Part shown: in pieces, positions 62,522 to 63,616 of the stretch
How the letters are laid out: every line of letters begins with the position of its first letter
Numbering within the stretch: the stretch's first letter is position 1
DNA from: Escherichia coli
GTDB taxonomy: Bacteria > Pseudomonadota > Gammaproteobacteria > Enterobacterales > Enterobacteriaceae
Length of the DNA: 64,000 bases
NCBI RefSeq assembly: GCF_003790525.1
Contig: NZ_CP033635.1
Strand: one strand, 5' to 3'
The notes under the pieces: model-generated
Database searches by the model: none
The model's input: the letters and a program-made list of their open reading frames with translations, nothing else
Told to the model about the DNA's origin: nothing
Position numbers and translations under genes: made by a program

Positions 62522-63616
62522 TTACACAATTTCGCGGCAGGCGCGATAGAGATCGTTCCAGTCGCTGCGCTCTTTGACTATAGTTTCCAGATATTCACGC
62601 CATACCACGTCGTCCTGCACGGGATCTTTTACCACCGCGCCGATAAGGCTTGCGGCGATATCCCGCGGATGTAGCACGCCGTCGCCAAAATGGCCCGCCA
62701 GCGCCATACCGTTGTTGATAACGGAGATCGCCTCCGCGGTGCTGAGAGTACTGGTTGGCGACTTAATTTTCGTTTTGCCGTCAACCGTCAGGCCGTTTCG
62801 CAGTTCGCGGAAGATTTGCACGACTCGCTGGATCTCTTTAAGCGCTGGCGGTTCGGCAGGAAGTGCCAGCGCCTGACCCAGTTCGGCGACGCGGCGAGTG
62901 ACAATGTTAATCTCTTCTTCTTCGCTGGCGGGTACGGGCAAAATGACCGTGTTGAAACGACGTTTAAGTGCGGAAGAAAGCTCGTTAACGCCTTTATCCC
63001 GGTTGTTGGCGGTGGCGATAACGTTAAAGCCGCGCGTCGCCTGGACCTCTTCATTCAGTTCGGGGATAGGCAGCGTTTTTTCCGACAGGATCGTGATCAG
63101 CGTGTCCTGAACATCGGCAGGAATACGCGTCAGCTCTTCTACGCGGGCAATCTGCCCGCGTGCCATCGCCCGCATCAATGGGCTTTCTACCAGCGCCGAA
63201 CGTGACGGACCTTTAGAGAGCAACTCCGCGTAGTTCCAGCCATAACGCATTTGTTCTTCACCGGTGCCTGCGGTGCCCTGAATAATTAACGTTGAGTCGC
63301 CGCTGATGGCAGCCGCCAGATGTTCAGAGACCCAGGATTTCGCAGTGCCGGGTACGCCATACAACAGCAGTGCGCGATCGGTTGCCAGCGTGGCAACGGC
63401 GGTTTCGATAATCCGCCTGTTGCCGATATATTTCGGCGTGACCTCAAAACCATTTTCCAGTTGCCCGCCTAACAGATAAGTAGCAACGGACCACGGAGAA
63501 ATAGCCCAGTTTTCCGGGCGCGGATGAGTATCGTTTTTTTGCAGCTCATCCAGTTCTTCTGCAAATTGTTGTTCGGCATGTCGGCGTAAAACGGCGGCAG
63601 TAGCGGTGGAAGTCAT
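62522..63616 (-). CDS. MoxR-like AAA+ ATPase, about 365 aa
   Basis: P-loop LLLYGVPGTAKS, Walker B-like IARVEELTRIP, sensor region FNVIATANN...LKRRF; ATG overlaps upstream stop (ATGA). Confidence 0.8.
   Translation of the reverse strand: MTSTATAAVLRRHAEQQFAEELDELQKNDTHPRPENWAISPWSVATYLLGGQLENGFEVTPKYIGNRRIIETAVATLATDRALLLYGVPGTAKSWVSEHLAAAISGDSTLIIQGTAGTGEEQMRYGWNYAELLSKGPSRSALVESPLMRAMARGQIARVEELTRIPADVQDTLITILSEKTLPIPELNEEVQATRGFNVIATANNRDKGVNELSSALKRRFNTVILPVPASEEEEINIVTRRVAELGQALALPAEPPALKEIQRVVQIFRELRNGLTVDGKTKIKSPTSTLSTAEAISVINNGMALAGHFGDGVLHPRDIAASLIGAVVKDPVQDDVVWREYLETIVKERSDWNDLYRACREIV

Follow-up and report, generated by a model that had tools for sequence, protein, structure and literature searches.

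A predicted MoxR-class ATPase of the YehL family with a family-wide Glu-Glu Walker B motif, encoded in a MoxR–VWA–TIKI-like gene cassette of Escherichia coli

MoxR-class AAA+ ATPases comprise seven named subfamilies (Snider & Houry 2006, cited in PMC3893208), one of which is the YehL subfamily, and Escherichia coli K-12 has two MoxR proteins, YehL itself being one (PMC3893208). Among the better described members, RavA is a biochemically active ATPase that is stimulated by ViaA (PMC3893208), while a finger-in-pore mechanism of the VWA protein has been reported for NorQD, in which each NorQ hexamer turns over approximately 13 ATP per minute (PMC13036017). A 'GXXXTAKS' P-loop has been described for other MoxR proteins (Kaur et al. 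2020, PMC7159879). In this study we analyse a gene at positions 62522..63616 of a stretch of 64,000 nucleotides from an E. coli genome (contig NZ_CP033635.1; hereafter the window), which lies in a cassette of five genes and had been predicted, from the letters of the window and an alignment by eye, to encode a MoxR-like ATPase with non-canonical Walker A and Walker B residues. The presence of alanine in the P-loop of MoxR proteins was therefore already known; the Glu-Glu pair that we find throughout the family of this protein sits in a subfamily, YehL, that is known but uncharacterised.

Overall, our analysis suggests that the product is likely to be an active ATPase with a selected variant of the Walker B motif, and comparison of the homologous sequences makes it probable that the GxPGTAKS P-loop and the R-h-E-E-h-T-R Walker B segment (h, hydrophobic residue) are ancestral, selected signatures of the subfamily rather than marks of degeneration. 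The coding sequence (62522..63616 including the stop codon; like all genes and motifs of the cassette, on the minus strand) specifies 364 amino acids and is supported as an open reading frame (ORF), by RefSeq, by Pfam and by an AlphaFold model; the protein has the same sequence as WP_000204707.1, an E. coli SMS-3-5 protein that RefSeq labels "ATP-binding protein". The Pfam family AAA_5 matches with E = 1.6e-38 over model positions 2-139 of 139, and since the whole model is covered, a genuine AAA+ module, not a motif arisen by chance, underlies the similarity. Other models perform less well: AAA_3 gives a weak match (E = 5.6e-4), the match to bpMoxR (PF20030) is weak and confined to residues 59-107 (E = 2.9e-4), which does not place the protein in that family, and the NCBIfam scores for GvpN (TIGR02640; 28 bits, cut-off 267) and for the MadB ATPase (NF047784; 45 bits, cut-off 475) stay below threshold. 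Judged from its sequence and modelled fold, the protein belongs to the YehL subfamily of MoxR-class AAA+ ATPases. Its start codon is the ATG at 63616, which overlaps the stop codon of the upstream DUF5691 gene by 4 nucleotides (ATGA). A longer reading of 392 amino acids from a TTG at 63700, present in the mechanical ORF list, was rejected as the start because the RefSeq annotation and the N-termini of the homologues favour the ATG.

Translation and codons bear out the two motifs as they were originally read. The P-loop is G87-V88-P89-G90-T91-A92-K93-S94 (63335..63358; GGC GTA CCC GGC ACT GCG AAA TCC) and departs from the consensus GxxxxGK[ST] at Ala92, which stands in the position of the second Gly, with Lys93 and Ser94 kept; it aligns with GPPGIAKS of RavA. 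The Walker B strand and the residues that follow are I156-A157-R158-V159-E160-E161-L162-T163-R164 (63125..63151). Here the departure from hhhhDE is twofold, with Glu160 (GAA, 63137..63139) at the position of the Asp that ligates Mg2+ and Arg158 within the "hydrophobic" strand, while the catalytic Glu is retained as E161 (GAG, 63134..63136). The placement of the Walker B motif, originally made by eye, was checked by four independent routes, all of which agree with it. In the HMMER alignments the segment "arvEEltripadv" falls under "llDEv", "vlDEl", "llDEi" and "llDEm" of the midasin AAA modules (AAA2-6); hhalign, run with a profile of 27 family sequences on E. coli RavA, sets GVPGTAKS opposite GPPGIAKS and IARVEEL opposite IVFLDEI; MAFFT, in a set with RavA, CoxD-like and NorQ-like sequences, puts E160-E161 under Asp-Glu and T163-R164 under N/D-R; and in the AlphaFold model the strand 156-160 terminates at E160. 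By alignment and model alike, E160 occupies the canonical position of the Walker B Asp, at the end of the Walker B strand. The whole sequence of the ATPase contains no Asp-Glu pair C-terminal of the P-loop, so that the canonical residues, whose discovery elsewhere would have counted against the original prediction, were not found. An alignment by eye is naturally open to doubt, and a sequencing error, a mutation of this strain or a misalignment concealing an Asp-Glu pair could in principle have produced the motif; we regard such an artefact as having a negligible chance, given the agreement of the four methods, the absence of that pair, the occurrence of the identical protein in at least 26 complete genomes and the presence of the motif throughout the family.

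The conservation of the two substitutions was studied in the YehL family, including members down to about 38% identity; residue counts refer to well-aligned sequences only, approximately 190-240 per column. Glu160 is found in 236 of 238 sequences and Glu161 in 236 of 237, and the arginines that frame the motif are invariant (R158, 239/239; R164, 236/236). Among the best 150 representatives of the clusters at 50% identity, which also extend to about 38% identity, the Walker B segment reads x-x-R-h-E-E-h-T/S-R almost without exception. Closer to the protein, the P-loop is G[V/S]PGTAKS in all of the 120 nearest clusters (78-100% identity); by alignment count E160 and E161 are kept in 120/120, and in a pattern scan every cluster that matches the Walker B pattern reads R-[VI]-E-E. 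Since the Glu-Glu pair is almost invariant across the family, it is a trait of the family and not a defect of this gene. At the level of codons, eight diverse loci between them employ both codons for Glu and each of the four for Ala at these positions, and a single third-position change converts Glu into Asp; because the synonymous codons vary and Asp is only one change away, the invariance of E160 argues for selection on Glu itself. The P-loop behaves differently, with Ala in 208 of 225 sequences at position 92 and Gly in 16 of 225, so that the family motif is GxPGT[A/G]K[S/T] and Ala92 is, as far as these alignments indicate, apparently a variable, near-neutral state. A strict coupling of the P-loop Ala to the Glu-Glu pair was considered and rejected, since the 16 representatives have Gly92 although E160 and E161 are near-invariant; the combination of Gly92 with Glu-Glu was seen directly in two proteins (P0180 and P0158). 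In a diverged YehL-like protein (P0200; locus L014, 9001..10104) the segment reads 'MVRFEESAR', with Glu-Glu kept and the conserved Leu-Thr replaced by Ser-Ala; its gene has no DUF5682 or VWA neighbours and directly follows a gene for an MshEN/T2SSE-type ATPase amid chemotaxis and flagellar genes.

Both substitutions are thus real and shared with other members of the family, and what requires revision in the original prediction is their standing as anomalies. For Walker A, alanine is not unusual in the class: it occurs in the P-loop of RavA, it belongs to the published GXXXTAKS motif, and Ala and Gly interchange within the family. The prediction had named the universality of the substitutions in a characterised active subfamily as evidence against itself, and with these findings, the activity of RavA with an Ala P-loop among them, this now holds for its Walker A half; by analogy with RavA, the Ala P-loop of the present protein is compatible with ATPase activity. 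For Walker B, the exchange of Glu for Asp stands and is not specific to this gene, as it is near-invariant in the YehL family, K-12 YehL included, and occurs in a second MoxR family. The latter is actinobacterial (Rhodococcus ruber WP_342661679) and combines a GPPGTSKS P-loop with a Walker B motif h-E-E-F-N-R in 120/120 homologues; it differs from the present ATPase in having only about 30% identity to it, over half the length, and Tyr at the position of R158. From these alignments, the Glu-Glu Walker B motif either recurs in or is common to a part of the MoxR class and is not confined to the YehL family. The R. ruber gene lies on plasmid pmega_1 (L008, 2947..3897), with a VWA gene following it and genes for mycofactocin-coupled short-chain dehydrogenases/reductases on the flanks.

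The AlphaFold model of the ATPase, built with 27 sequences, has high internal scores (predicted local distance difference test, 93.3; predicted template modelling score, 0.90), and shows the strand 82-87 running into the P-loop. A Foldseek search returned NorQ (template modelling score 0.82, normalised to the target) and CbbQ2 as top matches, in agreement with the prediction of a MoxR-like protein. Extra strands at 125-127/142-144 and 181-184/189-192 appear in the model where the helix-2 insert and the pre-sensor-1 hairpin are expected, and may represent these elements. Searches of the PDB with the single sequence and with a profile found no solved structure of a YehL-family member; the best match was midasin/Rea1 (E = 1e-15 with the single sequence, 3e-31 with the profile). 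The GTP-specific AAA_5 relative McrB is also among the weak matches in the PDB, and it invites the thought that the Glu-Glu pair and R158 might shift the cofactor specificity to a different divalent metal, or from ATP to another nucleotide, all the more as the coordination geometry preferred by a longer carboxylate ligand could differ. We consider this quite unlikely: McrB itself is matched marginally (E = 0.39-0.95, single sequence), the alignments show nothing that points to a guanine-specific motif, and an altered metal preference is without direct evidence.

A more serious concern is whether the module hydrolyses ATP at all. With the canonical Mg2+-ligand Asp replaced, the Gly-to-Ala and Asp-to-Glu exchanges could cripple hydrolysis and leave an AAA+ module with little or no catalysis, which serves as an ATP-binding scaffold or switch instead of a motor; MoxR proteins are slow even when canonical, as the rate of NorQ given above illustrates, and related systems offer precedents for inactive AAA+ modules, among them the N-terminal FtsH-type domain in the ternary systems (PMC7159879). 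Inactive modules, however, usually lose several catalytic residues, and in this family the remainder of the active site is in place. Besides the catalytic Glu, the P-loop Lys is kept (K93, 224/226), as are N204 (220/223), a candidate sensor-1 Asn at the end of the strand 198-204 (VIATAN; 63005..63007), R220 (219/220) and R273 (188/189), a candidate sensor 2 in the lid helix 259-274 of the model (62798..62800). R220 belongs to the pair R219-R220 of the sequence ALKRRF (62957..62962) and corresponds to the Arg of the MoxR 'ALxxRF' motif, which would make it the arginine finger; the MAFFT set places N204 and R220 under the sensor-1 Asn and the Arg of ALxxRF, respectively. Each of these residues, together with the P-loop Ser, is kept in at least 97% of the sequences. 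Moreover, the ATPase is the most conserved protein of its cassette, Glu retains the carboxylate chemistry of Asp, and RavA is active with its Ala P-loop. On balance a dead module appears unlikely to us.

Most likely, the ATPase is an active AAA+ motor that is coupled to a VWA protein and has a variant ligand for Mg2+. It would form a hexameric ring and hydrolyse ATP, with the longer carboxylate of Glu160 taking over the coordination of Mg2+ and water that is usually provided by Asp; the family-specific, co-invariant R158, located two residues upstream on the same face of the strand, probably alters the shape of the pocket so that the longer side chain fits, and conservation makes E98 on the P-loop helix a candidate for pairing with R158. 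The ring would then dock the CoxE-like VWA protein encoded next to it, whose MIDAS (for metal ion-dependent adhesion site) is intact, in a manner analogous to NorQ–NorD, CbbQ–CbbO, RavA–ViaA and midasin, and the ATP-driven movement of this adaptor would remodel or activate a client. From the gene neighbourhood, the most likely client or effector is the DUF5682 protein, which has a TraB/TIKI-like hydrolase fold. The effect of the Asp-to-Glu exchange would most plausibly be to tune the rate of hydrolysis or the metal dependence, without abolishing catalysis.

Several considerations weigh against the interpretation of the protein as an active motor. By consensus, Mg2+ is liganded by the Walker B Asp, whose replacement could strongly lower the activity, and a slow enzyme or a switch that only binds ATP may be conceived. 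The evidence for the client and for the biological role is the gene neighbourhood, from which both are inferred. No functional assignment emerged for the cassette from the profile scans: with PADLOC-DB 2.0 the five proteins yielded only a marginal P-loop similarity to IetA (E ~1e-3), the four partners of the ATPase being without a match, and in NCBIfam the four partners likewise had none. Finally, our literature search returned no biochemical paper on any member of the YehL family, and no functional or biochemical study of yehL, yehM, yehP, yehQ, the YehL subfamily, DUF5682, DUF5691 or DUF4132 (the paper that defines the subfamily lies outside its coverage), while a search on Walker B Asp-to-Glu variants produced nothing useful.

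The genes of the cassette are tightly packed in the order SWIM (440 amino acids), DUF5691 (534), ATPase (364), DUF5682 (749) and VWA_CoxE (389). The SWIM zinc-finger gene (Pfam SWIM, E = 2.4e-6) is the furthest upstream and is known from the SMS-3-5 annotation, being outside the window; only the 3' part of the DUF5691 gene (63613..64000, minus strand; SMS-3-5 annotation, Pfam E = 1.2e-122) is in the window, past whose end it continues. Downstream of the ATPase gene lie the DUF5682 gene (60255..62504), a paralogue of yehM, and, as the second gene downstream in this operon, the VWA_CoxE gene (59096..60265; Pfam E = 3.6e-52), a paralogue of yehP whose product is the presumed adaptor of the ATPase. 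The latter two genes overlap by 11 nucleotides, and from the overlaps the genes of the cassette are probably translationally coupled. The N-terminal ~330 residues of the DUF5682 protein have the fold of the TraB/ChaN/erythromycin-esterase (TIKI-like) group and include His and Glu residues that are invariant. In the VWA protein the MIDAS site is complete (D214-x-S216-x-S218, 59612..59626; T273; D299) and conserved in four orthologues. An N-terminal motif of the same protein, L-[RQ]-R-W-R-L-[IV]-L-G-E (60208..60240, minus strand), is kept in the E. coli protein, in YehP of K-12 and in the proteins of Verrucomicrobium and Bilophila while its surroundings diverge, and it may be a docking peptide.

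The same five-gene cassette is present in Verrucomicrobium spinosum and in Bilophila, in different surroundings. In a comparison of the window (59096..63616) with these two loci (L004, 5954..13751; L006, 6003..14163), the identity to the E. coli proteins is 81-85% for the ATPase, 68-82% for VWA, 48-59% for DUF5682, 43-50% for SWIM and 31-37% for DUF5691. By this measure the ATPase is the most conserved protein of the cassette across three phyla, a constraint that is unusually strong for an accessory and evidently mobile gene. The triad ATPase–DUF5682–VWA recurs more widely, as yehLMP in K-12, in Verrucomicrobium and Bilophila, and on a distant metagenomic contig. One further reading we put forward as speculative and rather unlikely to be correct: that YehL-type cassettes (ATPase, VWA and a DUF5682 protein with a TraB/TIKI-like metallo-hydrolase domain, often with SWIM and DUF5691) constitute an unrecognised ATP-gated hydrolase or protease system, in which the Asp-to-Glu exchange and R158 slow or gate the hydrolysis of ATP and the ring operates as a timer or threshold switch that releases the hydrolase. 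Such logic would resemble that of the MoxR–vWA 'ternary' conflict systems, to whose third component that of the cassette is unrelated.

As to its distribution, the ATPase gene occurs in 33 of 5,426 complete E. coli genomes, and K-12-type yehL is near-core, being found in 5,218 of the same 5,426. The ATPase gene lies between nanQ and gltD, unlike yehL, and this different locus, together with its rarity as opposed to the near-core status of yehL, identifies it as a paralogue and not an orthologue of that gene. K-12 YehL (b2119) is 41% identical to the ATPase over the full length (E = 2e-78); the DUF5682 protein is 27% identical to YehM and the VWA protein 38% identical to YehP, while BLASTP found no match of the SWIM and DUF5691 proteins of the cassette to YehQ or YehI. 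A search of plasmids showed a sharp gap between YehL-type matches (at least 39% identity, full length) and other MoxR proteins (at most 31%, about half the length). The nanQ–gltD site looks like a variable insertion site. The cassette region (approximately 58187..64000 and beyond; 7888..16237 in locus L001) adjoins a DUF1016 pseudogene fragment, and two hypothetical ORFs beside the cassette (58187..58759 and 58704..58874) are richer in AT, with a GC content of approximately 0.44-0.48 against 0.55-0.60 in the cassette. In K-12 (yehL-yehM locus, L002, 8597..11975), hns/stpA mutants are reported to show up-regulation of yehL and yehM, and an intergenic H-NS binding signal has been recorded (PMC3686432); in view of this up-regulation the near-core yehL operon is normally silenced, and silencing by H-NS may explain why phenotypes are lacking.

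These results have some practical implications. In annotation, the deviation from GxxxxGK[ST] and hhhhDE seen here should not be taken as the sign of a pseudo-enzyme. For the enzymology of AAA+ proteins, the YehL family offers a natural and strongly selected exchange of Glu for the Asp metal ligand of Walker B, which most E. coli carry by way of yehL. The widely distributed MoxR–VWA systems whose function is still unknown include the yehLMPQ genes and the cassette paralogous to them, for which the TIKI/TraB-like fold of the DUF5682 partner, with its putative hydrolase active site, provides a first concrete handle. In this respect the MoxR–VWA–TIKI-like cassette as a whole is a stronger lead than the residues of the ATP site.

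The relationship of the locus to the known systems can be summarized as follows. Its nearest counterpart is yehL of K-12, whose product has the same signatures (GEPGTAKS and IVRFEEITR) and whose neighbours likewise encode DUF5682/YehM and VWA_CoxE/YehP; the order yehL-M-P-Q is different from SWIM–DUF5691–ATPase–DUF5682–VWA, and the DUF5691 gene is a feature of the present cassette. NorQ/NorD and CbbQ/CbbO, MoxR–VWA chaperones of the CGN subfamily, resemble it in having the closest solved folds, a single AAA+ module and a VWA partner with a MIDAS site; they differ in that the sequence identity of NorQ and CbbQ to the ATPase is just 17-20%, that their Walker B is a canonical Asp-Glu, and that the YehL-type proteins have an additional N-terminal extension of about 60 residues and a longer lid. 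The clients of NorQ/CbbQ are cNOR or Rubisco, whereas no client is assigned to the present ATPase. RavA is similar as a MoxR ATPase with a VWA partner, ViaA, and with the same Ala-containing P-loop, but it has a canonical Asp-Glu (IVFLDEIWKA) and C-terminal LARA/triple-helix domains, and its hhalign probability to the ATPase family is only 78%. The bpMoxR proteins of the FtsH ternary systems (Kaur et al. 2020) also have a variant P-loop, although their beta-propeller and FtsH components are not partners of the ATPase described here. Midasin/Rea1, finally, shares with the cassette an AAA_5 module that works together with a MIDAS/VWA domain, but it is a eukaryotic giant of six fused AAA modules, and those that align best with the ATPase (all matches but the first) carry Asp-Glu where the YehL family has Glu-Glu.

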